Below, in pieces: positions 9,760 through 52,556 of a stretch of 64,000 nt of DNA. This DNA comes from Danionella cerebrum. Its lineage: Eukaryota. Numbering within the stretch: position 1 is the first letter of the stretch; each line of letters begins with the position of its first letter. Below the pieces are notes generated by a model. It was not told where the DNA came from and ran no database searches. It saw nothing but the letters and a program-made list of their open reading frames with translations. The stretch is from NCBI GenBank assembly GCA_007224835.1, contig SRMA01025500.1, forward strand, positions 21,870-85,869, written 5' to 3'. The position numbers and the translations under genes were made by a program.

Positions 9760-10170
9760 CTTTCATTCTATTGTAATGTGTCCGCTCCCAAATGCTAAAT
9801 AATTCTGTATGAGCCTAATACTGAAAGATCTAGTTCTCTTTTCAAGTCCTTTTGTCACATGTCCACCTAAAACAATAAGATTAGTTCTAATTTCAAGTCC
9901 TTTCACTCTTTTGTCAAGTGTCCGCTCCTCAATGTTAACCGATAGCCATACGAGCCGGAAACCGGAAGGATTAGTTCTTTTTCGAGTCCTTTTTACACAT
10001 GTCCAAAGAAAACAGAAGATTGGTTTTTCGAGTCCTTTCACTCTTTCGTCGTGCATTCATTCCAAAATGTTAACCAATGCCATATGAGCCAGAAACCGAA
10101 AGGATTAGTTCTCTTTTTGAGTTCTTTTGTTACAAGTCCACAGAAAACAAAGTTTATTTCTTTCATTCGT
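9760..10170. repeat. Satellite-like tandem repeat, about 135-bp unit x 3
   Basis: Three successive units each contain 'gagtcctttca(c/t)tct...gtccgctcc..aatg(c/t)taa..' followed by 'gtcc(t)tttg..acatgtcca..aaaaca'. ORFs in both strands here are reading-frame artefacts of the repeat. Confidence 0.6.
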
Positions 10171-18663: not shown

Positions 18664-20472
18664 AGGCCCTGGACTTCTCAAAGTTAATAATTTGCACAAC
18701 AATGAAAGAAGCTCCTGTAGAAAATGTTTCCTCTAGGTCTAGTACAATATGTTGAAACATTTTAAATCTTTTAAGTTTAAGTAGGGGAATGAAACAATAA
18801 AATAATGGAGAGTTCCGCATGAAGTTCATATATCCTTGTCAACTCGTACACATCTCACACCGGAAGATTTCGAGTTTAAGGGTATTGGCTATATGTGTGT
18901 AGGGGATAGGGGGGGGGTCAAGCTATTCTGTGTATGGCAGCAGTATAGAAGTGGGGGAGGGAGAGGCTTACTTAAGAGAGATTTGAAAAAGTGACGCACA
19001 GTGTATAAATAATTATAAGTTATAAGATGTATTCTTATGTGTCTGGTTTTTCTTTAAAACAATATTTGATAAAACAAAGCTATTGCTACAAATATACATA
19101 TTGATGCAGTTATGATTTAAATTATCTATTTTAACCGTACTATGTTCCAATGACTCCAGTCAGTTACATAAGCCTGCAAGACTTAGAACATAATGTGATT
19201 CAGCAAAAAAAACATTCCCTTAGTATCCAGGTCAGAGCTCTGGTCAGGTCTTCTATGTTTTTCTGTAACTGGGGATAAGCCTGAAGTAGCAACCAAAGAT
19301 AAATTCGAAGTAAAAACAGCCATGGGGGCAGATAGGAGCCTTCCAACCCAACCCCCTACTGTGCGTTTCCATTTTGTTGAGATCTAATCTGAAGCACTTC
19401 AAGCAAAGCACACACCTACAGTAAACACAAATACAGAGAGAGGGAACCAAAAATAAACCTCAGAGGGAAGACAACGAACACAGCCGATTCAAAATACAAC
19501 ACATTATAAGCTGATAAAGTAGTCTTGATAAGAAAACAATAGAAAAGTGACACACCCTCAGTAAACTTTATTGACCTCTCTGTTTGAACTCGAGGGATGC
19601 AATGTAAGCACAATTGTTTAGTTCACCACAAAAGTACAAGTGAGGATCCACTAAATAAATATAGAATCAAAGGCCTTCGTCCTCTGATATGCTCTGAATC
19701 TGCAGATATGCCTAAATAAATGCCCATGAATTAAATGCAACAGTATTAAGCATGCTAAAAGTTCAGTCCGTTCTCATACATTTTTAATGCAGAACTTTGG
19801 GATGAACATTAAAATGTTCAAATGGATAGAACATCCAAGAGGCTGACTTCAAGAACACACTTCATAATTAAACGCTGCATATTCTAAATAATGTGAGAAA
19901 AAAACAGGTTAAATGAGGGTATGTCGACTGGAATTCTGTCTTCCTCCTTTTTATATATTCAGTCAAACTTTTTCTGTTTCAAAATGTAAAAATGAACATA
20001 AAACGGCACGTGAGATTTCTCAATAATTGATACCGCTCTTTAGGTAATTTAAGAAAAAAAAACTACCAAGACATCTCATTCCCTTCTTAATTCTATCCTA
20101 CCCCTTATAATAAACTGCACTACTCTGTGTGAGAAATACCACTGACTAAATCACCTCAGATAAGAGTCAAGATATTCAAAGTCTTTGGCCTCTCAGAAAC
20201 TGAGAATATTTCTGCTAAACCAACAATCTGAAGAGTGCATACCATCTACATTTGCCACCACAGGACACAAATTCTGAAATTCTGAATGGGTACACAGCGA
20301 CTGAAAGTGTGATTTTTTATACTTTTATAATGCGTCATAAAACACCTCATTTTATTTGTTTGGAAAGAAATTTCTTTTCTTTATACTGATCTTATTTCAG
20401 CAGATTTGAATCTGTATGCGACAAACAAGGTTTTACATCATATTTAAAAGTCTTTGGAACTTCATAGTTTTA

Positions 20473-21198
20473 CAGTTGTGCTCATAAGATTTTGTACCCA
20501 GGCAATATTTTGGATTCCTTGGCCATTGTTCAAAAAAATCTGAATAAAAACTACGTAAATAAACTCTTGCATGAACTGCTTGTTTGAGTTGTTCAATGAT
20601 ATTGAGGTCAGGAGACTGAGATGGCCACTCCAGAATCTTCACTTTGTTCTGGTGTAACCAATGACAAGTGGACTTTGTGTTTTGAATTGTTGTTGTGTTC
20701 GAATGTTCAGCTTCTGGGCTAATGATGCACATTTTCCTTTGGTATCCTTTGAGAACATTCTGCATTTATACTGCCATCATTTTTGACACACATCCCCAAA
20801 ACATCAGTGACACGCCTCCATGTTTCACAGTGGGAATGGTGTTCTATTCATGTTGAGTCCTCTCCAAATGTACCGTTTATGGTTTTATCACAAATAACTT
20901 TGTTTCAGAAGTTTGGAGGTGTGTTTCTGAGCTGTTTGGCGTATTGTAAACAGGCTTCCTTGGATACCTTTTAATGTCCCTTTCCAATGCATCATTGGAT
21001 GAAAAAAGCAAGGGTCTATCAGGAGTTGATTACAAGCAAAGAGGTCACAGGTGAGGCGAGTTCCCTTTACTCGAACCCTTTTGTGTCTGCACCAAATTTA
21101 CTGAAAGTCATTTGGATTGTTTGACATAATGGCTTAACCCTACCACTAACTTATGAGTGGAAGAAATCCAAAAATTTGTAAACGTATGACCACAACTG
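20473..21198 (-). mobile_element. Tc1-like transposon, internally deleted copy with TA-flanked CAGTTGTG termini
   Basis: Termini TA|CAGTTGTGCTCATAAGATTTTG (20471-) and CAAATTTTTGGATTTCTTCC...CACAACTG|TA (-21200). Internal minus-strand frames give VKHGGVSLMFWGCV and KVKILEWPSQSPDLNIIEQLKQAVHAR, both signature Tc1 transposase motifs. Confidence 0.65.
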
Positions 21199-25089: not shown

Positions 25090-25900
25090 TCCTATGCCTA
25101 GTTCTGCACGCACTTTTTGTTCCAAACATCTTGGAGAACTAAGGACAAGTCTTCTGTGGATGTAGCTTTCTCGCCGTGTCTTCATGTAATACCAAACACA
25201 CTCGATGATGTTGTTGCTATGCCATCAATTTCAGAACTTCTTGAGCTTTTTTTCACTGAAGATAGGTTTTATTGGCTGGCTGTGTGTTTGGGGTCATTGT
25301 CATGTTGCAATTGGGGCCTCCTGATGGTGTTGCATATGCAAGTGTCTTTCAATATTTCTCAATGTTCACAACAACATTAATCTCCAGCTCTATTTGCCCC
25401 AAGTATTTAAAGACCCTCCACCATGCTTCACCGTTGCTGGCAGACACTCATTATTGAACCGCTTTCTGCATCAATTAAATATTTCAATCCAAAGAGCTTG
25501 CTGCTAATTTTCTGCCCCCGAATTCCAATGTTTTCATATATCATTTATGTGCTTGGCCTTTTCTGGAAATATGGCTTTTTTTAGCTCTTCTCTGAAGAAT
25601 TCTCCAGACAGTAGTTTACCTGGGGTCTGCAAGTTCTGAGCAATGTTTTACACTTCAGAAAATCTTCTATTTCCAAAGGGTAATAAGCTTGCTCAAGTTT
25701 CCCTGTCTCCAGTAATGTCTCCCGTTCTTTGTACTTCCCCAAAAGAGCCTGAAAAGCAGTTATTAAACCTCCAGTCTGCTCTGAAATCTTTGTCTTGGTT
25801 AGATCTGGTTGATGCAGTATAACTACCTTGTGTCTTGGTGCTAAACTCAATCTTGCCATGATAAAAAACGTCTTTCTCAACGTCACATTGGTAGCAGATT
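25090..25900 (-). mobile_element. Degenerate Tc1-like transposon (transposase N-terminal HTH and mid-region remnants)
   Basis: Minus-strand 25880-25600 encodes MARLSLAPRHKVVILHQ..LTKTKISEQTGGLITAFQALLGKYKERE (Tc1 HTH-like, compare SxxLRxRIVxLHKAG.GYK.ISK). 25400-25460 carries 'ccaccatgcttcaccgttgctggcagacactcattattg', the same motif as the 60.0-kb Tc1 fragment (VKHGGG). Confidence 0.5.
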
Positions 25901-25904
25901 TTGG

Positions 25905-26035
25905 CTGTTCATCAGCCGGTTTTCTGTGAAGGACTGGCGACCTGTCCAGGGTGTACCCCTGCCTCTCACCCAATGTTCCCCCGTGACCCCGAAATGGAAT
26001 AAGCGGGGAGGAAAATGAATGAATGAATTGCCTGG
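25905..26035 (+). mobile_element. tRNA-derived SINE, 3' fragment
   Basis: 'gactggcgacctgtccagggtgtacccctgcctctcacccaatg...ccccgtgaccccgaaatggaataagcgg..gaaaatgaatgaatg'. Confidence 0.6.
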
Positions 26036-26590
26036 TTTTAAGCCTTCAACACAGCTTTTGCTCTGTCAGCTCATAACTGGGTTATAACCTTGGTGTTCAC
26101 TAGAACCTGTTAGGTAGATACTATAGGTTTTGGGTTTATCTTTTAAAATGCACCTATAAGAATTGATTAAGGCAGTCACACCAAATATTGACGGAATTTA
26201 GATCAAGTATTTTTCACCTTTAAGCATTGCTAAATAATTTGTAGAAAAATTATAAACTGCAATCCTGTCTGACTGACAGTAGCATGTCCTTTAAAATCGT
26301 AAATGGAAAAAGGAGAAGGCCCTTGTCTGTGCGTACTCACAACATTTGGGAACTAATCTGGTTTGTTTACAATGGAGTGGGAGGAGTTTATAATGGTCCA
26401 TTTGCTTCAAATGGATCCCATAACAAACAACAGAGTTGTAAACAATCAGCTTCATAATATCACAGAATGATATGCAAATAATTGCAGTCCTGGCTGCTGT
26501 GAAGTGGACAATTGGCTTAAGATGTGCATTATGAAATATGATTTATGCAAAACACTTTGCACAAAACAATACTCCAATATTGTTTGCTCT

Positions 26591-26885
26591 TGGCGGCACG
26601 GTGTCACTCCCTGGAAGGAGTTTGCACGTTCTTCCCGTGCTTGCGTGGGTTTCCTCCGGTTTCCCCCACAATCCCCAAAATCATGTGGTTAGGTTAATTG
26701 AATAATCTAAATTCCCCTTAGGTGTGAATGTGTGCGTGAATGTTGCCCTGCAATGGACTGGCGACCTGTCCAGGGTGTACCCCCACCTCTCGCCCAATGT
26801 GCGCTGGAGATAGGCATGGCCGACCCCCGTGACCCCAAAAAATGGATTAAGCGGGTTGGAGAAGGAATGAATGAATTAATGAATG
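26591..26885 (+). mobile_element. tRNA-derived SINE, full-length copy
   Basis: tRNA-like head 'ggcggcacggtg..', then 'gagtttgcacgttcttcc..gcgtgggtttcctccggtttcccccaca', then core 'tggcgacctgtccagggtgtacccc..ctctcgcccaatg', then tail 'gaatgaatgaattaatgaatgg'. Confidence 0.7.
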
Positions 26886-26939
26886 GTTTCCAAGCCTCCC
26901 TTAACTTAAAAGTACCATGACCCCACTCCATGCAGGTTT

Positions 26940-27180
26940 GAGGGAGCTAAATAGACCTTTTTTCCTTTAAAGAACCCCTGAAGCTCTTGTTTTGGTTCTT
27001 CACCGGTTCTTTGCCTGTTTGAGGGTGCACTATAGAACTTTTTTCACTTTAAAGAACCCCTTTTGCTCTTTTTGGTTCTTCACTGGTTTGTGTGTGCTAT
27101 AAAGCACTTTTTTGCTCTAAAGAACCCTAAGCTCTTTTTGGTTCATTACTGCTTCTTTGTGGTTTTGTGGTCCTGATATT
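26940..27180. repeat. Tandem repeat, about 60-bp unit x 3.5
   Basis: Iterated 'actttttt..ctttaaagaacccct...gctcttt(g)ttttggttcttcac.ggtt' units. Degenerate relatives continue to about 27440. Confidence 0.5.
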
Positions 27181-29341: not shown

Positions 29342-29544
29342 TTTAACATACAAATAACTTCATGTTTAGTGTTATATCTTCTGTAAAAAAGGAATTACAG
29401 ATACATAAAATGTACAATGTATAAAAGTCAATATTTCAAAAAAGTATTTTTAACGAATCACTGAGAAGGTGTTTTCTTCTCTGGGAGATCAATATTAGAA
29501 GTAACACTGTTTTTTCATGAGCTTTTCTAAATGAAGTACTGGTG

Positions 29545-29799
29545 TGGGCAGCACGGTGGCGCAGTGGATAGCACTGCGGCCTTCCAGTTAGAAGGTTGCT
29601 GTTTCAAGGTTTGCTGGTGACCTTCCTGCAAGTAGTTTGCATGTTCTCCCCCGTTTCTCTGGGTTCCCCAACAATCCCAAAAACTTGCATGTGAGTGTGT
29701 GTTGTCCTGCAATAGACCAGTGATGTGAGCTGGAGATAGGCCCCAGCAGACCCCCGTGACCCCGAAAGGGAATAAGCGGGATGGAAAATGAATGAATGA
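29545..29799 (+). mobile_element. tRNA-derived SINE, full-length copy
   Basis: Head 'gggcagcacggtggcgcagtggatagcactgcggccttccagttagaaggttgctgtttcaaggtttgctggtgacc' with tRNA-like A/B boxes. Then 'gtttgcatgttctccc', then core, then 'gaaaatgaatgaatga'. Confidence 0.7.
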
Positions 29800-31689
29800 T
29801 TGATAAAGTACTGGTGTGAGTCCATCCTGGGTTTGTTCCTGGTGTTTTAAAAAGAAGATGGGTAATGCTGAATAAAGCATCAACTTTGCCATATGGTCAT
29901 TCACTTAACCAAAAAAGTGGCGGTATGGTGGTGTTGGTTATTCTAGCAAGCCACTGTTAATAATGCGGCTAAAAGGTTACACGTTTTAACGTTTTGGTTT
30001 TAAAGGTTTGGTAACAAAGGTTACAAGAGATATGACACTATTAACAAGTGACACGATGTGCAATCATCTTTCAGTTTACGGACTCCAAATCGGTGCCATC
30101 AGTGCCATCTTGGGATGAAAACCCTTGGAAGCACAATACCTGTGATATAAGACAATTTAATTCTCAGAATTTTTTTTAACAATTTCTTGATTGTTTTGAA
30201 CTAGAAAAAGTATATCAAGCACTGACACAAAAAAAACTGTTTAAAAATAAAATTTCTTAGAGCAAATTCGTGAAATGCTCAAAATGGCTGCAGACTTGCC
30301 GTAATAACTTGACTGAACAAACGAGATGTTATAGATGTCTCTCTGACATTACTTTTATCTCTTGATGTATTGCAAAACACTAAACCATCTCTGTTTACAT
30401 CAACAACTGACAGCCGTCTTAAGTTATATGTAACATTTAATAATGTGATAGGATTTGGATTGATTTTGTTAAGCATCATCATTGTTAAGTGCCTTGCTAA
30501 AAGACCTAGCGATGCCGCCTGGAGCCAAAAAACTCAATTTCCTGGGCAAAAGCTTTACTCGGGTTCCCAACTCAGCAATTCAAGCTTCCTGTTTATAGCA
30601 TAATAACATATGTATCATTTATAATGCAGTATGGTTGTCATAAACATATAAACCCTTATCTTTTCAAATGCACAGATTGTTTTAGTTTAGTTTGTTCCTA
30701 CACAGAATTCACACATATGCAGCTACATTTATAAATATTTATAATATAGCTGTCCCGCTGTAACAGGATGAGTGGAAAGCAAGCACTGCAGCTAAGATGT
30801 ACTGTTACATGGTTTAATTCACTCAAGAAACAAGGAGTGAGGAGTACAGTGCCTCAAAAACCAATCATTGACAAAAAGAAACTGGGTGCAGAGGGACTAA
30901 ATACACATGGAAATCAAGACAACGAGGGAGTGACCGGATGTAAACAATGCGCTAACAGGTGGGGAACTAATGACCATGTGAAAACCAGAGACACTAAGTT
31001 CTGACAGTACCCTTGGCATGGCATCAGAGACATATCCAGCTGTATCTGCACCACTCTCAAAACACCAGCATGAGACTGGTGGGGTGGAGTCAAACAATTA
31101 TAATGCTCGTCACTACAGAATGTACTGTGGTGACACAAAGTTCGTAGGTTTGTGTGAGTTTCTTCACGCAGACATCTCCAGACCGTTCTAATGCTGGTGT
31201 CCCTGAAGTGATAATCACGTGATGTGGCTGCAGCTGGATTTTAATTTGTCCAAGGAGTGGGTTTGGGGCACAAGGGAACACACAGTCTTTGGGTGGGGGC
31301 AGTTCAAAGAAAAAGCTGGCATTTCAGAGGTTGAACCGACACCTGGTGGGTTGCTGAAAACCGATGCTCTGCCTAGGAGTTACTCAACTGAGCTGACACC
31401 AAGAACCCGGAGGGCTGTGAAGGTGCATGCATGATCTTTTTCATGGCGACTTAGGGTGTGGGGGTAGTGGGGTGGGAGATGGAGTTCATTCAAGCCTCTA
31501 TGACAGACTTAAGCCGGTCTAGACTGTGAGGTGACAACCTCCGAAAGTGGAGCTATAGGGGCGAGGAAGGATTCAAGACTGGAGGATCAAGGCTGTAGGG
31601 TCATGGACAATGGTAAAGCATGGGGACATGTTTGCATGTCCAAAAAGAGAACATAGAGAGAGGGTTTCCAATCTTTTAGTTTGACAGCA

Positions 31690-31870: not shown

Positions 31871-32949
31871 CTACAAATATTGTGATGCACATTGTATCAT
31901 GGACAGAATGTCGAGGTATGATGCAATTTAAGGCTCTTTCAGCTGCATAACCTTACATTACCTCCTTCCTTTATCTATCTGCATGTTTTCTCATCCTTCT
32001 TGTGAAAAGCCAGCTTTACATTTAAATTCCCATCATGAGGAAAGGACGATTATGTCATGGTCAGTTCTTAAAGCTTTGAGTCGACTTCAAGGAGCAACCC
32101 ATACACAGTGTTGTTGCTTCAGGGAGAAACATTTGCAAAGACATTTCATCTGACGTTTGCATATTTTTGCAGAGCATTCAGAGATAAATAAATCATTCAT
32201 TCCCTCCATTGCTTTGGGAGCTCATTTTAGCTCATCGGGAAAACTGAGCTAAGCTGGAAGGCTATGGTGTTTTTCTCTCAGTCTTCATTTATGTCTTGCA
32301 TATGATTACACTTTGGAAAATGTAAAGATTAAACATCACAATGAAGCCTCTGCGACCAAGTAGTCTAAAATAATTACATAAGATAGAATTAATTTAAAAA
32401 AATCCAAATGGAATTTTAAAATCTAAAATTATATTATGTTCCTGAACCTAAAAGTGGACATTTACAACACAAACATGCCTTTGTTTTGTTTAGCATTTGT
32501 CCCATTCTTTGCAACAGAATCTTCAAACTTTATTGGAAGTCATTCAACCAGCTTCTGCTTCATTCAACTCCAGTTTTTGGTTCTGCCTAATATGGTTCTC
32601 TTAGAATATTCAGTCTGAAGCTTCGTGCGACAATGTGCCTCGATCGAATACTGTGGGCACCAACACACACATCTGAGCGAACGAGTGGTAAGAATGAGAA
32701 TCGCCTCCCTGACCGGCAGTGTTCCCAAAGAGCAGTTTCCCAAAAGCAAGATGATATGACTGCGCATATTGTGTTTCATCTACGTCTGCACAACTTTGAT
32801 TCTTTTGATATTTGGCACCAGTTTATCAGAAAGTGCCAATTTTGTGTTTTTGCGCTCATTGGATGGAAACTGTGCTTTTTCGCAAATATTTTATACAACA
32901 TTTCAGTTTTGCGCATGAATTTTACTCTGCTGAAACATATGCCATGCAC

Positions 32950-33268
32950 CATTCATTCATTTTTCAACCCGCTTATTTCCAACCGGGTTTGCCGGTGCCT
33001 ATCACATTGGGCGAGAGGTGGGGGTACACCCTGGACAGGTCACCGGTCCTTCGCAGGGCAACATTCACACCTGACAGTGAATTTAGATTATTCAATTAAC
33101 CTAACTGCATGTTTTTGGGATTGTGGGGGAAACCGGAGTACCCAGAGGAAACCCACGCAAGCACAGGGAGAACATGCAAACTCCTTGCAGGAAGGTCACT
33201 GGCAAGCCTTGAACTGGCAACCTCCTTACTGGAACGCAACAATGCTACCCACAGCACCACCATGGCTC
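32950..33268 (-). mobile_element. tRNA-derived SINE, full-length copy, minus orientation
   Basis: Exact reverse-complement organisation of the 26.6-kb copy: 'cattcattcattttt..ccgcttatttcc..gggcgagaggtgggggtacaccctggacaggtcaccgg...ggagaacatgcaaactcc...ggagccatggtggtgctgtgggtagc'. Confidence 0.7.
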
Positions 33269-34548
33269 CATTCAAATATTTTCATATTAACAAAACCAAA
33301 CTGGAACAATACAAATATTCAAATTAGTTAATATCATAAATAAAATTTGCATTTTTGTTGTTTTTCTGTGCTTTATCTGTTTGAAATATTTTGGGACAAC
33401 CGTTCTCTCAGGCAAATAACTACCTTCATTTCAGCAAGTAAGTTATGTCTTCAGATGCTGTATTTGTGAGCAACCAATAGAAAATACCTTGTGAAAATGA
33501 TAGAAGACCTTTTAGAGAAATATTATTGAATATTTCAGTTTTTTTGTTAACTTCCCCCATGACTTATGCACAGTCTATTTGAATAAATCATGACATCCTT
33601 TGCCAAAAGGGCTTTCGTGGCTCTTCAAAGTGCACATTAACAAGCTGTAAGAAGGAGAAAATGGGCCTTTTCTCATTTTCTCCTCTCCCTTTCTAATACG
33701 GCAGTGCTGACAACAGAATGTGAGGTCAATAGGACCTGGCACAGTAATATCTCTTCTACGCGAAATTAGAGTTTAATGAAACAGGATATGAGAACACTCT
33801 GACATGGCAATGCGTATGTCATTGAAGAGGCAATTCTTCCTCGTCTCCAGCCGGGACAGAGGCTTTCACACAAGCTCTCCATCCTTCGTGGAGGAGACTG
33901 ATTCCTCACGGAGAGGAAGAAATCGCTCTTTATTGTGACTCCTGAAGGGACTGATCTGTAAATTGATGCAACAAAAGGACTTACAACAGCTTGCAAGACC
34001 ATGGGAGATTGTGACAGGCGAAGCCAGAGGAACCATCTAAGATGTCTAAAAACTGTTCTCACATGATGATAGTCCTGGAAATTTATAGACAGATTTTTTA
34101 GCTACGGGACAAGATGATGTGAGGCTGTGCAAACGCTTTTTCCAGTCTTCTCTATTTTTTTGTTTCACAGAATGCAGTTCATCTAAATTATTTTGTGTTT
34201 TCAGAATGCTCTTCTAGACTTTGTGTTTCATTGATCCCTACAATTCTAAACACGAATGTGTATTTCACAGAATAAAGTGTGGTTAAGCATTTAAGATCTT
34301 AACCACTTTTTATTTACATTTAAAATCAAATGAGGTTATGTTATCTGATGCCCATAGCAGGGGGTAACAGCTTCTGTATTTCTGAGCATGTTTCCTGGAA
34401 GGTAAATGAAGCCACCTCCTATAATAATACATTGTAAAAAGACTCTATTCAAAATAGTTGACTAATTTGCAAGCAGAGTGTCAAATATTAAGTGCCACGT
34501 GTAGGTTGAAGCCCAGTCATGGAATGAAATAAAAACAGGCTTAATAGT

Positions 34549-39079: not shown

Positions 39080-39675
39080 ATATTTTTACACCGGCACCAT
39101 CGAGAGCGTCCTGACTGGAAACCTCACTTCCTGGTTTGGGGATAGCACCATGCAGGACCGGCGAGCCCTATAGAGGGTGGTGCGTTCAGCTGAGCGTACC
39201 ATCCACACCGAGCTCCCAGACCTGCATGACCTCTATAACAAGCAGTGCAGCACCAGAGCGAGGAAGATTGTGAAGGGCCTCAGCCATCCTAACAATGGAA
39301 TCTTCTCACTGTTGCGTTCAGGAAAGCATTTCTGCTCCTTGAAGGCAAACACAGAGAGAATGAGAAGGAGCTTCTTCCCGCACACCATTCGGACTCTAAA
39401 CAGGGACACACGGGACACACAAAGACTTTCTATCCTCATTACTCATTTGGTTTGCACAACCGTTGACTTGAAACAACACTTTAGTGAGCATCTCTCACAC
39501 ACAAATCATTGTGTTTTTGTATTTTTATTTCATACCTGTTTAATTTTCTTATTATTTACATTTTATTTATTTTCATTTCTATTTTATCTATTTCATCCCT
39601 TACAAGTTAGACAGTCATGCAATATATTTCACTGCACGTCATACTACAAATAAAATCTGAATCTGAATCGGAAAC
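39080..39675 (+). mobile_element. 5'-truncated LINE copy: C-terminal end of ORF2 plus 3' UTR ending in a (TCTGAA)n-like tail
   Basis: Translation gives ...FYTGTIESVLTGNLTSWFGDSTMQDRRAL.RVVRSAERTIHTELPDLHDLYNKQCSTRARKIVKGLSHPNNGIFSLLRSGKHFCSLKANTERMRRSFFPHTIRTLN. I recognise this as a conserved C-terminal block found at fish LINE 3' ends. The sequence ends 'caaataaaatctgaatctgaatcgg'. Confidence 0.6.
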
Positions 39676-45042: not shown

Positions 45043-46666
45043 ATTTCTCAATGTATTCTTATCTTACAGGATTTGTTTCACACCTGCCCAAAACATTTGC
45101 ACAGTACTGTGCATTAGTTTTGGACATGAGTGTTGTCAGAGCCTGTGAATCAGGTTTCTGTATTTCAGAAGTAGCCTGTTGACGGAGGGCGTCTTTAATA
45201 AGTAAAGGGCTCATTCTCTCCCTCACCATTGGATCTTTGACCGCGTCATCCAACCTTCTTCCTGTTTGTTTTGTAGCAGATTATTTTCTCTTTCCATCAA
45301 TGATGGGATTTATGGCTCTTTGGATGGAGCCGGACCTTTTGGATCCGTCCACTTTAAAGAGCCGTTCAAAAAACTGGCTCAATTTGCTCCTTCAATTTTT
45401 GACTTTTAAGAAACCAGCATGGGGTACATTTTTTTATTCTGGAAATAATCACAGGAATTATAAGCTGAGATTCTGTACCAATTTTTGAGTTTGAAATATT
45501 TGACTATTGCTTTATTTGACACATACTTATCCTTTGTATTAAATGTATGTGTGTAAAACTTTGACTTGTTATTTAATGAAACACCTAATTACTCATAAAG
45601 AACAAAGACGGCTTCAATAAAGTTTCACGCCAAAACCTTAAAGCAAAATTTCCACATAAGTACATTTTTAACAATACTGAAAAACTAATTAACAATATTT
45701 TAAAATTATATAAACCCAATAACAAAATAAGTAAAAAAAATACATACTACTATTTCCAAAATGATAAAACAGTTCCAGTCTTTATGGTGTCTCTCTTTTT
45801 TTTCTTTCTGCAAATTCGAATTGAGAAACACAAGTGCTCTCACTTTGGAATGTTTGAGGCGATTTCTCCTCTTTGTGAGTATTTTTCCAGTTTTGGAGAA
45901 AATTGTTCCACAACACAAAGCATTTAGCCACTAGTTGACTAAGCCTTGGATACACAGGTACCCGACTTTCCCACCACTTCAAAGGGTCTTTATTCTTAGG
46001 AACAAGTGGCTCCTCCATGACAGCGTCTGCTGTGGGGTTGCCAAGGTTCCAGCTTCCTGGTCATAGAGGTATACATCTACACATTTATCCCTCCTCCCCC
46101 CAGAGGAGAACAGCTCCCAATCAAACGCGACTTGGCTCCGATCGTTCATATTAATGAGACGTTCAAAAGATTCGATTCGTTTGTGAACGTCCCAACACTA
46201 CTTTCCATCTTGGAGACTGCAACCCTAGAAAGTTTTCCCTCAGAATCTCTTACCAACAGAACAATCGTCCCATCAACGTAACCAGCAGAGGAATGGTTTT
46301 TCCATCAAAAACAATTGATGGGTCTTTGAAGCCATGCGTGGAATGAATGAGTTCACCTTAAATAACAGTGTTTTACATGAGAAACACCTACCGTAATCAT
46401 TTATAGATTTCCATGTAATGGAGGCAAGTGGAAAGCTTACAAAGTGCACATCCAGATGCATATCCTCCCTTCCTAAATAAAAAAAACATTGAATCATCTT
46501 GAGAGAAATGGTAATCTGAGGTTCTTCTCATATGTAAACGTAAGGCTGTTTTTCAGAGGAAATGTATTAGATGATCAGAGATGAGAGGGTGGGCTGTACT
46601 TGTCACCTCTGAGATGTAATAGAGCAAACATCTTTTGAGTCATTAGGCTTAAGTAGTCATTGCTGA

Positions 46667-46711: not shown

Positions 46712-47379
46712 CTGGCAGGTAAGCGCACTTTCCTCACCCTGTGGAATCAGTCTCCATGACGGCAGCTCAGGCTGAAAGAGGCACCAGGGAGGAGAGATGC
46801 TGTCACTCACTCCTTCTCCAGCACTAACCATCCACTCCAGCTTTGCGAGTCCAACGCCTTGTTCTTTAATTCATCAACTACAACATTTAATCTTTGGTTT
46901 GGTACATTTATGCATTTGGTACTTTATGCAGAACGTTTCACAGCAGTGGATCCTTGGATTAGTTTGTCTTTTAATGCATTTTATGTTCTCAAAAATTATT
47001 CCCAAGCCTGAAAACCCAGGTGAATTTGGTGGATGGAGTGTCCTAGGAGCCAAAGCAAGCTACCCCCATGCAAGTATGGCTGTGGCGATAGGGTGAAGAG
47101 CATGCTTAAATATAAATATATGCTGCTAACAAGACAAGAGTTGCTGCCGCTGCACTTGATTCACTTCCGAAATGAGTTCGAAACTTCAGTTAATTGTTTT
47201 TTTTTTTTACTTGACCGCGTTTTAATAATAAAATTCCCAGTTCGAAATAAAACCCCCTTGCATTGCACATGTAAACTAAGGGGGGGAGGGGAGACAATAT
47301 GCTGTTACATACAAAAACAAATACAAAATTGTCACATTAGGAATTCATCTTTTTTGGTTATTGCAACTCCATCTTCACA

Positions 47380-47513
47380 TGTTTAAGTAAACATCTCTTG
47401 AGCGACGTCAGGTTGTCCAGAACGCTGCTGCAAGGCTTTTAACCAAATCTTCCAGGTATTCATGTCACCCTGAAATTAATCCAGCTGCATTGGCTCCCCA
47501 TCCATCTCCGAGT
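47380..47513 (+). repeat. 5' part of an older interspersed repeat, split by the LINE insertion
   Basis: '..catctcttgagcgacgtcaggttgtccagaacgctgctgcaaggcttttaacc...ccagctgcattggctcccca' ends in the left copy of the 17-bp TSD. It continues at 50642 once the LINE is removed. Confidence 0.5.
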
Positions 47514-50500
47514 CTTCTTCTTCTACTTTCGGCTGTTCCCAGTTTAGGGGTCGCCACAGCGAATCATCCTTTTCCACCTAACTCTGTCTTCAGTATCCTC
47601 TACTCTTGCACCAACCATGTCCTCTTTCAGCACATCCATATATCTCGTCTTTGGCCTTCCTCTTGACCTCTTTCCTGGTAGCTCCATCTCCAACATCCTT
47701 CTACCAATATAACCACTATCCCTCCTCTGCACATGTCCAAACCATCTCAACCTGGCCTCTCTGACTTTGTCTCCAAAACAACCAACCTGAGCTGTCCCTC
47801 TGATGTGCTCGTTCCTAATCTTGTCCATCCTAGTCACTCCTAAACTGAACCTCAACATCCTCATCTCTGCTACTTCCAGCTCTGCCTCTTGTCTCTTCCT
47901 CACTGCCACAGTCTCCAACCCATACATCATAGCTGGTCTCACTACTGTTCTGTACACCTTTCCTTTGATTCTTGCTGACACTCTTCTGTCACACAACACC
48001 CCTGACACTTTTCTCCACCCACTCCAACCTGCCTGCACTCGTCTCTTCACCTCTTTTCCACACTCCCCGTCACACTGGACTGTTGACCCCAAATACCTAA
48101 ACTCCTGCACCTTCTTGACCTCATCCCCCTGTAACCTCACTGTTCTATTTCCCTCCCTCTCGTTCAAACACATGTATTCTGTCTTGCTGCGACTGACTTT
48201 CATTCCTCTTCTTTCTAGAGCTGACCTCCAACTTTCCAGGTTTTCCTCCACCTGCTCTCTGCTCTCACTACAAATTACAATGTCATCTGCAAACATCATT
48301 GTCCACGGCGATTCCTGCCTGACCTCATCTGTCAACCTGTCCATCACCATAGCAAATAAGAAGGGACTCAAAGCTGATCCTTGATGTAGCCCCACCTCCA
48401 CCTTGAACTCCTTTGTCTGACCTACAGCACATCTCACTGCTGTCTTACTTCTCTCATACATATCCTGAACTACTCTGACGTACTTCTCTGCCACTCCTGA
48501 CCTCCTCATACAGGACCATAGCTCTTCTCTTGGCACCCTGTCATACGCTTTTTCTAAATCCACAAAGACGCAGTGAAGCTCTTTCTGACCATCTCTGTAC
48601 TTCTCCATTAACAATCTCAGAGCAAAAATTGCATCAGTAGTGCTCTTCCTGGGCATGAAGCCATACTGCTGTTCACAAATATCCACTTCCCTTCTTAGCC
48701 TAGCTTCCACTACTCTTTCCCAAAGTTTCATTGTGTGGCTCATCAACTTTATGCCTCTGTAGTTGTTACAACTCTGCACATCACCCTTGTTCTTAAAGAT
48801 TGGTACTAGGACACTTCTCCTCCATTCCTCAGGCATCTTCTCACTCTCTAAAATCCTGTTGAATAACCTAGAAAGGAACTCCACTGCTGTCTCTCCTAGA
48901 CACTTCCACACCTCCACTGGTATGTCATCTGGACCAACAGCCTTTCCACTCTTCATTCTCCCCAGAGCCTTCCTCACCTCATCCTTTCTAATCTTTTCAA
49001 CTTCCTGCTCTACAGTATTCACCTCTTCCTCCCTTCTTTCCCTTTCATTCTCCTCATTCATCAACTCCTCAAAATACTCCTTCCATCTTCTCAGCACACT
49101 CTCCTCACTTGTTAGCACCTTTCCATCTCTATCTTTAATCACCCTTATCTGTTGCACATCCTTCCCATCTCTGTCTCTCTGTCTGGCTAATCTATACAAT
49201 TCCTTCTCGCCTTCCCTCGTGTCTAACCTGGCATACAACTCATCATATGCTTTCTGTTTGGCCTTTGCCACCTCCCTCTTCACTCTGCGCTGCGATTCCT
49301 TGTAGTCCTGTCTACTTTCTTCAGTCCTTTCAATGTCCCACTTCTTTTTAGCTAGCCTCTTCCTCTGGATGATGTCCTGTACTTCCTCATTCCACCACCA
49401 TGTTTCTTTATCTTCTTTCCTCCTTCCAGCTGACACACCTAGCACCTTTCTTCCTGTCTCCCTGATCAATTCTGCTGTAGTTTCCCAGTCATCTGGAAGC
49501 TCTTCCTGACCACCCAAAGCCTGTCTCAGCTTCTGTCTGAATTCTTCACAATCTTCTTCCTTTTTCAACTTCCACCACTTGGTCTTCTTTTCAATCTTTC
49601 GTCTTCTCTTCTTCCTGACCACCAGAAACATCCTACACATCACCATCCGATGCTGTCTGGCTACACTCTCCCCTACCACTACTTTACAGTCTCTGATCTC
49701 TCTCAGATTGGCTCGTCTACAAAGGATGTAGTCTACCTGCGTACTCCTCCCTCCACTCTTGTAGGTAACTCTATGTTCCTCCCTCTTCTGGAAATAAGTA
49801 TTAACTACAGCCATTTCCATCCTCTTGGCAAAGTCCACCACCATCTGTCCTTCTAGGTTCCTTTCCTTAACACCGTACCTGCCCATCACCTCCTCATCAC
49901 CTCTGTTGCCCTCGCCAACATGCCCGTTGAAATCTGCTCCCACTACTACTCTCTCCCCTCTGGGAACACTCTCAATCACCTCATCCAGCTCACTCCAAAA
50001 TCTCTCCTTCTCTTCCAACTTACAGCCTACTTGTGGAGCATAACCACTCACTACATTCAACATCACCCCTTCAGTTTCTAACTTCAAACTGATCACCCTG
50101 TCTGACACTCTTTTCACCTCTAAAACATTCCTCACAAACTCCTCCTTCAGGATCACTCCTACCCCATTTCTCTTCCTATCCACACCATAGTAAAACAGTT
50201 TGTATCCCCCTCCAATACTACGCCCTTTGCTACCCTTCCACCTGGTCTCCTGCACACACAGAATATCTACCTTTCTTCTCTCCATCATGTCCGCCAGCTC
50301 CCTACCCTTCCCTGTCATTGTACCAACGTTAAGAGTCCCTATTCTCAGATCTACACTCCTGCCTTTCCTGTTCTCTTTCTGTCGACGAATCCTTCTCCCT
50401 CCTCTCCTTCTTCGACAAACAGTAGTCCAATTTCCAGCGGCACCCTGTAAGTCAACAGCACCGGAGGCGGTCGTTGTTAACCCGGGCCTCGACCGATCCG

Positions 50501-50641
50501 GTATGAAAATCGATTTGGTGACTCGCATATTTGGTTTTGGCATATTTTACGCCGGATGCCCTTCCTGACGCAACCCTCTCTATTTATCCGGGCTTGGGAC
50601 CGGCACAGAAGTCACTGGCTTGCAACCCCTGAGGCTAGATT
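47514..50641 (-). mobile_element. Full-length non-LTR retrotransposon (single-ORF APE+RT, RTE-clade-like), about 3.13 kb, with 17-bp TSD
   Basis: Single 999-aa ORF with a 98-nt 5' UTR and a 30-nt 3' UTR ending in a (GAA)n tail ('..gtagaagaagaag'). Direct repeats cccatccatctccgagt (47497-47513) and cccatccacctccgagt (50642-50658). Removing the element rejoins one continuous repeat sequence. Confidence 0.85.
47544..50543 (-). CDS. LINE polyprotein: N-terminal AP endonuclease (EEP fold) + reverse transcriptase, 999 aa, no internal stops
   Basis: Endonuclease motifs: LNVGTMTGKGRELADMMERRKVDILCVQETRW, VVGADFNGHVG, TQVDYILCRR. RT motifs: PIFKNKGD, YGFMPRKSTTDAIF, HCVFVDLEKAYDRV, GLHQGSALSPFLFAMVMD, MMFADDIVI (FADD box). 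ATG at 50543-50541, stop TAA at 47546-47544. Confidence 0.85.
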   Translation of the reverse strand: MPKPNMRVTKSIFIPDRSRPGLTTTASGAVDLQGAAGNWTTVCRRRRGGRRIRRQKENRKGRSVDLRIGTLNVGTMTGKGRELADMMERRKVDILCVQETRWKGSKGRSIGGGYKLFYYGVDRKRNGVGVILKEEFVRNVLEVKRVSDRVISLKLETEGVMLNVVSGYAPQVGCKLEEKERFWSELDEVIESVPRGERVVVGADFNGHVGEGNRGDEEVMGRYGVKERNLEGQMVVDFAKRMEMAVVNTYFQKREEHRVTYKSGGRSTQVDYILCRRANLREIRDCKVVVGESVARQHRMVMCRMFLVVRKKRRRKIEKKTKWWKLKKEEDCEEFRQKLRQALGGQEELPDDWETTAELIRETGRKVLGVSAGRRKEDKETWWWNEEVQDIIQRKRLAKKKWDIERTEESRQDYKESQRRVKREVAKAKQKAYDELYARLDTREGEKELYRLARQRDRDGKDVQQIRVIKDRDGKVLTSEESVLRRWKEYFEELMNEENERERREEEVNTVEQEVEKIRKDEVRKALGRMKSGKAVGPDDIPVEVWKCLGETAVEFLSRLFNRILESEKMPEEWRRSVLVPIFKNKGDVQSCNNYRGIKLMSHTMKLWERVVEARLRREVDICEQQYGFMPRKSTTDAIFALRLLMEKYRDGQKELHCVFVDLEKAYDRVPREELWSCMRRSGVAEKYVRVVQDMYERSKTAVRCAVGQTKEFKVEVGLHQGSALSPFLFAMVMDRLTDEVRQESPWTMMFADDIVICSESREQVEENLESWRSALERRGMKVSRSKTEYMCLNEREGNRTVRLQGDEVKKVQEFRYLGSTVQCDGECGKEVKRRVQAGWSGWRKVSGVLCDRRVSARIKGKVYRTVVRPAMMYGLETVAVRKRQEAELEVAEMRMLRFSLGVTRMDKIRNEHIRGTAQVGCFGDKVREARLRWFGHVQRRDSGYIGRRMLEMELPGKRSRGRPKTRYMDVLKEDMVGARVEDTEDRVRWKRMIRCGDP

Positions 50642-51035
50642 CCCATCCACCTCCGAGTGCATTTTATAAAATAGAGCTCTTAAAAACCAAGCACTGGTCT
50701 ATATAAAAGGCCTCGTGCTGCCCTACACTCCCAGCAGGTCTCTGAGGTCATGTGACCAGGGTTTTCTGGTCGCCAAGAGAACCCGGTTAAAAATGAAAGG
50801 TGACAGTGCCTTTGCAGCACTGGCTCCCTCTCTCTGGAATCCCCTTCCTCTCAGCCTCAGATCCGTTGACTCAGTGTTTTCTTTTAAAAGACAGCTAAAG
50901 ACACATCTTTTTAAAATGGCTTTTTACTAATTGTTTTATATTCTCTATTCTGTGTTTTAATGTGAAGCATTTTGTGATCTGTTTATCTCGAAAGGTGCTA
51001 TATAAATAAATATATAATTATTATTAGTTACTCTG
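50642..51035 (+). repeat. 3' part of the interrupted older repeat (ends '..aaggtgctatataaataaatatataattattatta')
   Basis: Begins with the right copy of the TSD and continues 'gcattttataaaatagagctcttaaaaaccaagcactggtctatataaaaggcc...ctggctccctctctctggaatcccc..ctctcagcctcagatccgttgactcagtgttttcttttaaaagacagctaaagacacatc'. I recognise this motif from fish interspersed repeats. Confidence 0.5.
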
Positions 51036-51834: not shown

Positions 51835-52556
51835 TTTTTTGTACAACCTCAGCTTTTTTTTACAATGATATCTTTATTACATTACACAATAATTCCATAG
51901 CAAACCTGAAATTGTGAAAAAATTCAATTCTGACCAGAAACCTTATACACCGTGTGGACACATTTCCCATGTCTTGTACTTCCAATGGGCATCACTTCCT
52001 TTCACCACTAGATGGCACTGATAGCATGCATTTGGAGTCTGTAAAACGAAACTGAAAGACAGTCACTCATTTTCTCAATTTAAATACCAAATTATCTACC
52101 ATTCATTCATCTTTTAACCCCTTGTTTCGTTTCGGGGTCACGAGGGCCTGCCTTTCTCCAGCGCACTTCAGACAAGAGGTGGGGGTACTCCCTGGACAGG
52201 TCGCCAGTCCATCAAAGGGCAAAAAACACATTCAATTAACCTAAGGCATGTTTTTGGGATTGTTACCCGGAGGAAACCCACGCAAGCACAAGGAGAATAT
52301 GCAAACTCCTTCCAGGAAGCCTCAAACCCTGAACCTTCTATTTGGAAGCCCACAAAACCTTCTGCATCACCATGCCGCTCAATTATGTAGCGTACCTCTT
52401 GTAATGTTCTTTAAACCCAACAATTTCAGTGCTAATAACCTTTTTGAAACTTACATGTTAATTTTGGAATCAAAATTATAATAGTGGTTGGTCGCACCAT
52501 TCCTACTTAATACAAAACAGCTGATGTGATTGGCAAACGCACCGCTGTGTGCAGAG
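51835..52556. mobile_element. piggyBac-like MITE, copy 5 (5'-truncated) carrying a nested SINE
   Basis: 'gtacaacctcagcttttttttacaatg...ttcctttcaccactagatggcactgatagcatgcatttggagtctgtaaaacgaaactgaaagacagtc...cctttttgaaacttacatgtta...tggttggtcgcaccattcctacttaatacaaaacagctgatgtgattgg..gcaccgctgtgtgcagag'. Confidence 0.45.
52110..52380 (-). mobile_element. tRNA-derived SINE inserted inside the piggyBac-like MITE copy 5
   Basis: 'cattcattcatcttttaacccc..gtttcggggtcacgagggcctgcc...gacaagaggtgggggtactccctggacaggtcgccagtcc...ggagaatatgcaaactcc', the antisense of the SINE consensus seen elsewhere in the window. Confidence 0.6.

Follow-up and report, generated by a model that had tools for sequence, protein, structure and literature searches.

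The 64-kb window, by which we mean the whole stretch of Danionella cerebrum DNA analysed here, very probably contains a full-length, coding-intact and autonomous plant-like fish RTE element that was inserted by TPRT into an older, decayed repeat. The anatomy of the element, its boundaries, its target-site duplication (TSD) and its family placement were established by the present analysis. The features were located as follows:

47391..47496, plus strand: older host repeat, left part, decayed, with the motif QNAAARLL ... LHWL
47497..47513, no strand assigned: TSD copy at the element's 3' end, CCCATCCATCTCCGAGT on the plus strand
47514..50641, minus strand: full-length RTE-clade LINE of the plant-like fish RTE lineage, 3128 bp, aligned end to end by blastn with L001-L003
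47514..47543, minus strand: 3' UTR, 30 nt, ending in GTA(GAA)3G
47544..50543, minus strand: single ORF with AP-endonuclease, reverse transcriptase (RT) and RTE-type C-terminal domain, 999 aa from the first ATG
47544..47750, minus strand: C-terminal RTE-type motif region, LRWFGHVQRR ... GRPKTRYMD ... RWKRMIRCGDP
48078..48785, minus strand: RT domain with FADD, residues 587-822, Pfam PF00078 RVT_1, E=6e-39
49713..50336, minus strand: AP-endonuclease domain, residues 70-277, Pfam PF03372 Exo_endo_phos, E=1e-7
50544..50641, minus strand: 5' UTR, 98 nt, the best-conserved segment of the element
50642..50658, no strand assigned: TSD copy at the element's 5' end, CCCATCCACCTCCGAGT on the plus strand
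50659..50927, plus strand: older host repeat, right part, ...HF ... PYTPSRSLRS ... GDSAF ... LWNPLP ... FKRQLKTHLF

Across the whole element, blastn identity reached 85.4% with a copy from the bagrid catfish Hemibagrus (L001), 82.9% with a Logan sequencing-run contig (L002) and 81.5% with a Tara marine metagenome contig (L003). The alignments spanned the ends of the element, that of L003 beginning four bases inside the 5' end, and confirmed the full length that a first-pass annotation had claimed. At the 3' junction none of them ran more than one base beyond the element, and the 5' end AATCTAGCC was common to L001 and L002. The Hemibagrus copy had its own, different TSD of 15-16 bp adjoining the same termini. 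Judged from this homology to three other sources, both ends of the element can be regarded as confirmed independently of the TSD. No sibling copy was found elsewhere in the 64-kb window, an exact-protein look-up of the 999-aa product returned no identical record, and family-specific strings had no match among the entries listed from the curated fish LINE FASTA of the sea-snake paper.

The identification as a LINE was upheld by a single ORF encoding an AP-endonuclease followed by an RT, the absence of LTRs, the TSD and the microsatellite tail. Absence of terminal repeats and the presence of TSD flanks are those of an APE-type non-LTR retrotransposon, as is the presence of the endonuclease and of the RT with its FADD box in one polypeptide. 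The ORF had zero internal stops, in agreement with the uninterrupted 999-aa frame initially proposed, and was the only one longer than 250 aa in the window. The start codon conserved in relatives corresponded to the second in-frame ATG, at codon 6 of the ORF, so that the conserved product would be 994 aa long and the 5' UTR 113 nt. Outside the element, a Pfam scan of ten stop-to-stop ORFs of at least 75 aa gave just weak DDE_3 and hAT matches, and these ORFs resembled repeat relics. The element's relatives and the kinds of repeat nearby suggest a teleost as the host.

Canonical endonuclease and RT motifs, already noted in the first reading of the sequence, were recovered both by Pfam and by an alignment with human L1 ORF2p, with which the protein was colinear over residues 8-738 of the latter. 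The endonuclease retained N72, the E of QET, the Y of GYAP, the D and N of DFN, the D of VDY and the catalytic H, which aligned with L1 EN residues N14, E43, Y115, D145, N147, D205 and H230. The 'SDH' motif of the endonuclease reads 'RQH' here; as plant RTEs likewise have 'QH', this is not a defect of the window copy. The RT motifs VFVDLEKAYD, HQGSALSP and FADD were intact. [quoted passage not shown] The human LINE-1 ORF2p (PDB 8uw3, 8sxt) resembles the present protein in the colinearity of its endonuclease and RT and in its catalytic residues, and the insertion mechanism generating the TSD would be the same. Unlike LINE-1, the element has neither ORF1 nor a poly(A) tail, measures 3.1 kb instead of 6 kb and scored 91 bits only against ORF2p.

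A single ORF without ORF1 and a length of 3128 bp correspond to the architecture of the RTE clade (about 3.1-3.3 kb), as do the very short 3' UTR, the simple-repeat end and the absence of poly(A). The untranslated regions and (GAA)n tail of the first-pass annotation were recovered at 50544-50641 (98 nt) and 47514-47543 (30 nt), with a tail of (GAA)3. Since it reads GTA(GAA)3G, this tail is a very short microsatellite; those of relatives were (GAA)3-5. The 5' leader was free of ATG and carried two in-frame stops ahead of the ORF, and its identity between sources was 84-91%, as against 66-75% at third codon positions. Hairpins were predicted in the 5' UTR, with little covariation among the 3-4 sequences compared. 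Another predicted hairpin, across the stop codon, was uninformative because it was invariant in four sequences.

Clade membership was examined with phmmer on the whole protein, using labelled reference sequences from the supplements of two papers. Scores were 1677 bits for the medaka element OlRTE-a03, 812-880 for plant RTEs, 379 for Rex3_Tet and 322-360 for RTE-Snek_1 and RTE-Snek_2. Outside RTE, where the references comprised Proto2, Rex1 (CR1/L2 group), L1 ORF2p and R2, they fell to 85, 71, 91 and 90, respectively. The NJ tree agreed with this placement, and the earlier preference for RTE over L1 or L2 is supported by scores of 322-1677 against 71-91 bits. In this tree the element grouped with OlRTE-a03 and EsRTE-a01, as sister to the plant elements and apart from Rex3, which is the position of the plant-like (Plant/Animal) RTE subgroup; the OlRTE-a03/EsRTE-a01 cluster and the plant-sister clade were both obtained in 100/100 bootstrap replicates. 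Protein identity was 81% to OlRTE-a03 (in the machine-read text of a PDF supplement), 86% to the medaka protein P0081, 74.5% to the hagfish EsRTE-a01, 44-45% across the full length to the RTEs of rice, soybean and potato, 31% to Rex3, and 26-28% to RTE-Snek. These sequence comparisons support assignment to the plant-like fish RTE lineage, which sharpens the initial assignment to RTE. The plant-like RTE family and its proposed plant-fish link were described by Tay 2010 (PMC2887409), after Župunski 2001; the same report provides an RTE description for comparison, HmRTE-e01, of 990 aa.

Architecture and length were the same in OlRTE-a03 (Oryzias latipes, AB207138:17235-20258) and EsRTE-a01 (AY965681), which share with the element the N-terminus IPDRSRPGLTTTA..., the RQH motif, PWTMMFADDIVICSE and the C-terminus ...RWKRMIRCGDP*. 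The window copy differs from its medaka relatives by its host and by ~14% amino-acid divergence; it lies at a dS of 0.7-0.95 from the copies with DNA and has an extra upstream in-frame ATG. The sister group, OsRTE-a01 (rice), GmRTE-a01 (soybean) and StRTE-a01 (potato), belongs to hosts of a different kingdom and shares the domain order, the QH endonuclease motif and the C-terminal motifs LRWFGHV...GRGRPK. Plant RTEs end in (GTT)n with a TSD starting with T, whereas the present element ends in (GAA)n with a TSD starting with A.

The classic RTE of teleosts, Rex3 (Volff et al. [quoted passage not shown] Identity with Rex3 was ruled out by primer mismatch, a differing tail and the 31% protein identity. 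The Rex3 primers RTX3-F3 and RTX3-R3 had no site at up to 3 mismatches. Of the Rex3 tail GCG(GAA)2(GATG)n, no GATG repeats were found, and the stop codon is separated from the element end by 30 nt instead of 3 nt in Rex3, which occupied a separate branch in the NJ tree.

The two TSD copies, CCCATCCATCTCCGAGT and CCCATCCACCTCCGAGT, matched at 16/17 positions, so that the duplication originally reported, 17 bp with one mismatch, was found adjoining both independently defined ends. At the 3' junction, a single A can be assigned to either the tail or the TSD. Among 1.8e8 17-mer pairs spaced 2-5 kb in the window, a 16/17 match was reached at only 13 loci; as such a rare pair abuts both ends, the TSD is far beyond chance expectation. 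The first-pass annotation had also considered that excision restores a continuous older repeat and provides a clean empty site. Continuity was retained: when the flanks were rejoined with one TSD copy kept, they read ...QNAAARLL...LHWLPIHLRVHF...PYTPSRSLRS... and were collinear over the junction with the same repeat, embedded in the Hemibagrus protein P0087 (LHWLPVAARIRF). The cleanness was not, the comparison being made with one distant, frameshifted relative. The rejoined flanks carry less weight than the TSD, since the old repeat has frameshifts and occurred only once in the window. Protein-level fits with none, one or both of the TSD copies gave no clean discrimination, owing to the same frameshifts, and a manual base count placed a 14-nt shortfall relative to P0087 at 8-15 nt right of the junction.

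According to Nishiyama & Ohshima 2018, RTE insertions display a signature in which the TSD opens with the base that is repeated in the tail, with a T-stretch located around P-10. Position 1 of the present TSD was A, next to a (GAA)n tail, and TTTT occupied P-13 to P-10, an observation that is anecdotal for a single insertion (n=1). A T-stretch near P-10, as described for plant RTEs, was seen at the window site in this single case, and was absent at the insertion site of the Hemibagrus copy.

TPRT is established for APE-type LINEs, and from it we infer the order of nicks at this site. The element RNA would have been translated into one protein carrying both endonuclease and RT. The endonuclease would then have nicked the window's plus strand between positions 50658 and 50659 (5'-CTCCGAGT^GCATTTTAT-3'), and the freed 3' end may have served as the primer for cDNA synthesis from the (GAA)n end of the RNA, with microhomology of no more than 1 base. 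Cleavage of the other strand 17 bp away, followed by fill-in synthesis, would have produced the 17-bp duplication.

The lineage is under purifying selection (dN/dS 0.09-0.11 against L001-L003), and the window copy is without decay. It carried 22 private substitutions, mostly conservative, compared with 21-34 in the other independent lineages; its conserved 5' UTR was intact, and 0/15 conserved CpGs had decayed in a surrounding genome that is CpG-depleted (o/e 0.45). The suggestion that the element is possibly young thus received indirect support from the dN/dS of ~0.1, the few private substitutions and the unlost CpGs. In an age model with assumed rates, ~15% of neutral changes in the 3-kb ORF were taken to be disabling, giving P(intact)=exp(-450d). 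Under these rates the intact ORF would place d very roughly below ~0.7% at the 5% level, and the best estimate, combining the intact ORF with one TSD mismatch in 34 bases, was near 0.2%. We therefore infer that the insertion is recent on the scale of neutral decay, with roughly less than 1% divergence; the TSD mismatch represents either some elapsed time or an integration error. As far as its sequence goes, the window copy may be retrotransposition-competent and could still be active.

The first-pass annotation had stressed that full-length copies are rare, which does not apply to this family. Clusters at 90% identity comprised 819 protein models for Hemibagrus and 342 for medaka, with several distinct members of 996-997 aa, and the window copy is not a rarity because intact family copies are common in other fish. 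NCBI and UniRef label relatives as 'hypothetical protein' and 'ribonuclease H'.

A more ambitious reading, which we consider unlikely, is that the window copy is the currently active master of a plant-like RTE lineage moving horizontally among aquatic vertebrates. It is allowed by the distribution of relatives, since the 90%-identity clusters span teleost orders (a carp member in the catfish cluster, climbing-perch members in the medaka cluster) and the hagfish element nests within teleost diversity in the NJ tree. If it were true, the element would be a recent arrival in its host and the conserved 98-nt 5' UTR would be a portable promoter. For the sampled sources themselves, dS ranged from 0.54 to 0.95 among the four copies with DNA, which lends no support to recent horizontal transfer between them.

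It is improbable that the insertion is old and dead, its 3-kb ORF having stayed open by chance. The TSD copies do differ at one base, and neither a sibling in the window nor an identical protein on record is at hand for dating. However, neutral decay soon creates stops or frameshifts in 3 kb and none is present, no conserved CpG was lost despite the genome CpG o/e of 0.45, the private substitutions are few and conservative, and a dN/dS of ~0.1 is hard to reconcile with a long neutral phase. An intact ORF and strong purifying selection on the lineage would also be expected of an RTE that had been domesticated as a host gene and preserved by selection for host function, but this is very improbable: the copy has kept its full termini together with the 5' UTR and the tail, its TSD is fresh, the locus lies inside another repeat, relatives number hundreds of copies per genome, and such purifying selection is normal in active LINE lineages. 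Hardly any credit can be given to an assembly artefact, in which a collapsed, consensus-like repeat would simulate an intact ORF that is not one physical copy: short-read assemblers do yield stand-alone family contigs of ~3.1-3.3 kb (L002, L003), but here the element is joined on either side to unique flanks that carry a matching TSD and together reconstitute one older repeat, something that a collapsed contig put in the wrong place would not produce.

The preferred reading, that of a full-length RTE inserted by TPRT, describes an element that is known in kind, plant-like RTEs having already been described in medaka and hagfish, and that is well preserved and ordinary. The wider interest of the family lies in the long-standing proposal of plant-fish and fish-fish transfer, which is published and is not advanced by a single copy. 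The finding matters little beyond annotation: the locus should be masked or annotated as a plant-like RTE-clade LINE and not as a host gene. As an intact, clean-ended copy, it is a good reference sequence for the family in this host, and a candidate for screens of activity or polymorphism.

A protein search with the ORF of the element returned 2459 relatives, the best of which were 85-89% identical and came chiefly from the catfish Hemibagrus guttatus. The DNA of three relatives, namely a locus on a Hemibagrus chromosome (L001), a contig of 3142 bp from run SRR7031337 (L002) and a 3263-bp contig from a Tara Oceans metagenome (L003), was compared by blastn with the element and 60 nt of flank on either side, and identities were 85.4%, 82.9% and 81.5%, respectively. 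The alignments of L001 and L002 started at the first base of the element and stopped at its last base, plus or minus one; that of L003 began four bases inside it. All three relatives shared the 3' terminus ...GCCGAAAG-N-AGAAGAAGAAG with the element; the 5' terminus AATCTAGCC was common to the element, L001 and L002. Since homology stops at these termini, and since the Hemibagrus copy is flanked there by its own, different duplication of 15-16 bp, the element is full length and has the following features.

Features of the element (window positions)
47514-50641 (-): element, 3128 bp
50544-50641 (-): 5' UTR (L001:1387-1500; L002:2-115), the most conserved element segment between sources
47544-50543 (-): ORF, 3000 nt open, 999 aa; Pfam matches Exo_endo_phos (residues 70-277) and, C-terminal to it, RVT_1 (residues 587-822)
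47497-47513 and 50642-50658: 17-bp target site duplication (TSD)

The ends proposed by the first-pass annotation were thereby confirmed independently of the direct repeats, and its UTR lengths (98 nt in 5' and 30 nt in 3') agreed with them. GAA units were indeed present at the 3' end, but the presumed (GAA)n tail amounted to GTA(GAA)3G only. Identity of the 5' UTR between sources was 84-91%, versus 66-75% at third codon positions, which points to selection for a non-coding role such as that of an internal promoter or of an RNA element; among the three sequences, almost no covariation was seen in the predicted hairpins.

The ORF, established from the ORF listing and a reading of 47200-50900, was the sole one above 250 aa in all 64 kb of the window. 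The start codon conserved among relatives matches the second in-frame ATG, at codon 6, which makes a product of 994 aa likely. A search against solved structures aligned residues 66-788 colinearly with residues 8-738 of human LINE-1 ORF2p. In this alignment, the counterparts of the L1 endonuclease residues N14, E43, Y115, D145, N147, D205 and H230 were all kept, and reverse transcriptase motifs A (FVDLEKAYD), B (HQGSALSP) and C (FADD) were found; the ORF listing, Pfam and the ORF2p alignment bore out the claim of an unbroken 3-kb ORF with endonuclease and RT motifs. The single endonuclease departure was 'RQH' where L1 has 'SDH' (ARQH, residues ~307-310). Antisense ORFs of 122-193 aa, rich in S, L, T and P, also lie inside the element (47803-48384, 48763-49305 and 50200-50568, +); they are by-products of a sense strand with 68% purines, not genes.

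RTEs of fishes usually go by the name of Rex3. This identity was rejected: the Rex3 tail GCG(GAA)2(GATG)n, beginning 3 nt past the stop, was missing from the element, standard Rex3 primers had no site in it at up to 3 mismatches, and protein identity to Rex3_Tet was 31%. The supplementary files of two papers provided labelled references; those of the lepidopteran RTE paper (PMC2887409) contained OlRTE-a03, EsRTE-a01, Rex3_Tet and the rice, soybean and potato RTEs.

Comparison of the element protein with references (phmmer score, identity)
OlRTE-a03 (medaka): 1677 bits, 81%, depressed by errors in machine-read PDF text
EsRTE-a01 (hagfish): 74.5%
Plant RTEs: 812-880 bits, 44-45% over full length
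Rex3_Tet: 379 bits, 31%
L1 ORF2p: 91 bits
R2: 90 bits
Proto2: 85 bits, RT region only
Rex1: 71 bits, RT region only

Identity to a medaka UniRef protein (P0081) was 86%. In a neighbor-joining tree rooted on Proto2, the element protein grouped tightly with elements of medaka, catfish and hagfish, and this clade was sister to the plant RTEs and apart from Rex3 and RTE-Snek; both nodes had 100/100 bootstrap support. These sequence relationships place the element in the 'Plant/Animal RTE' subgroup of Tay et al. 2010 (PMC2887409), after Župunski et al. The initial RTE call was therefore right, and bit scores and tree sharpened it to a plant-like RTE rather than Rex3; the family is already described, the present copy being a further member. 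Plant RTE references also carry 'QH' ('xQH'; PMC2887409, Additional file 2), whereas Rex3 and RTE-Snek retain 'DH'. The 'RQH' of this fish lineage is thus a lineage trait rather than damage, and the QH-type motif a shared derived trait of the subgroup.

The TSD 17-mers differ at one position. Among all 17-mer pairs 2-5 kb apart in the window (1.8e8 pairs), a 16/17 match was reached at only 13 loci, several of them dispersed repeats; a pair lying directly at either end of an element whose limits were set independently is not due to chance, and the proposed 17-bp TSD held. Without the element and one 17-mer, the flanks translated, with frameshifts, as QNAAARLL ... LHWLPIHLRVHF ... PYTPSRSLRS ... 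LWNPLP ... FKRQLKTHLF, which identifies the restored sequence as a decayed interspersed repeat. This host repeat also occurs inside a chimeric Hemibagrus model, P0087 (...QNAAARLV...LHWLPVAARIRF...), and the 17-mer codes for 'PIHLRV' of its motif. The tblastn alignment to P0087 crosses the insertion junction if one 17-mer is kept, in support of the claimed empty site; this evidence is nevertheless weaker than the TSD, the host repeat being frameshifted and having no second copy in the 64-kb window. Between 'RVHF' and 'RALKNQ' (50659-50690, +) it is ~14 nt shorter than P0087; as this gap lies 8-15 nt right of the junction, it is a separate small deletion, outside the insertion event.

Target-primed reverse transcription (TPRT) is the established model for such insertions and, combined with the element's anatomy, suggests the following path. 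In element orientation, the target would read ...TATTTTATAAAATGC // ACTCGGAG(A/G)TGGATGGG // GAGCCAATG..., the first nick falling on the window + strand between 50658 and 50659 (5'-CTCCGAGT^GCATTTTAT-3'). The 3' end at this nick would prime reverse transcription on the (GAA)n end of the RNA, and the second nick would come 17 bp from the first. The base repeated in the tail, A, is also TSD base 1, and TTTT occupies P-13 to P-10. Both agree with the split signature described for RTE-related retroposons, although a single insertion is an anecdote; unlike the window element, the Hemibagrus copy has no T run near its insertion site.

The element is surrounded by a mosaic of transposon remnants, in which no host exon was recognisable.

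Other repeats in the window
9808-10156: tandem repeat, 135-bp unit, 2.5 copies, 77% matches
20436-20765 (-): Tc1-type DDE_3 relic, Pfam E=5e-4, below cutoff
25584-26946 (-), 29530-29904 (-), 32591-33328 (+), 52118-52387 (+): dispersed repeat family, ORF-like motif ARGGGTPWTGRQSIAGQH ... GEHANS
39174-39401 (+): Rex1-like LINE C-terminus relic, 46% over 76 aa to Rex1-Snek_1H1, E=2e-21
45785-46060 (-): hAT C-terminal dimerisation-domain relic, Pfam E=1.8e-4, at cutoff

The dispersed family has at least 5 window copies, some pairs sharing >=16/17-mers, and no Pfam match.

Between the element and L001-L003, dN/dS was 0.09-0.11 and dS 0.72-0.95. The lineage leading to the element has therefore been under strong purifying selection; the sampled lineages are anciently diverged, and these dS values gave no sign of recent transfer between them. 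Aligned with eight relatives, the element protein carried 22 substitutions of its own at columns invariant in the others, largely conservative (R/K, I/V, F/Y, D/E); other independent lineages had 21-34. All 15 CpGs conserved in L001-L003 were intact (genome CpG o/e 0.45). Assuming, by our own estimate, that ~15% of neutral changes disable a 3-kb ORF, the intact frame would roughly imply less than ~0.7% divergence since insertion, and ~0.2% is the best rough estimate once the TSD mismatch (one in 34 bases) is included. On these grounds the copy is probably young, as first proposed. No sibling copy was found in the 64-kb window, and an exact-protein look-up returned no record of its protein.

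The 90%-identity clusters of a 996-aa Hemibagrus and a 997-aa medaka protein held 819 and 342 sequences, respectively, with several distinct full-length proteins among the members read. Intact copies of the plant-like family are thus frequent in the genomes of some fishes, and the earlier argument from the rarity of full-length copies is weakened accordingly. The two clusters examined (P0073, P0081) span teleost orders, the catfish one including a carp member (Cirrhinus molitorella) and the medaka one Anabas testudineus members, and hagfish EsRTE-a01 lay beside a Silurus copy, inside teleost diversity, in the tree. Horizontal transfer of this family has reportedly been proposed already; the cross-order clusters and the nesting of the hagfish element are compatible with such transfer or with contamination.
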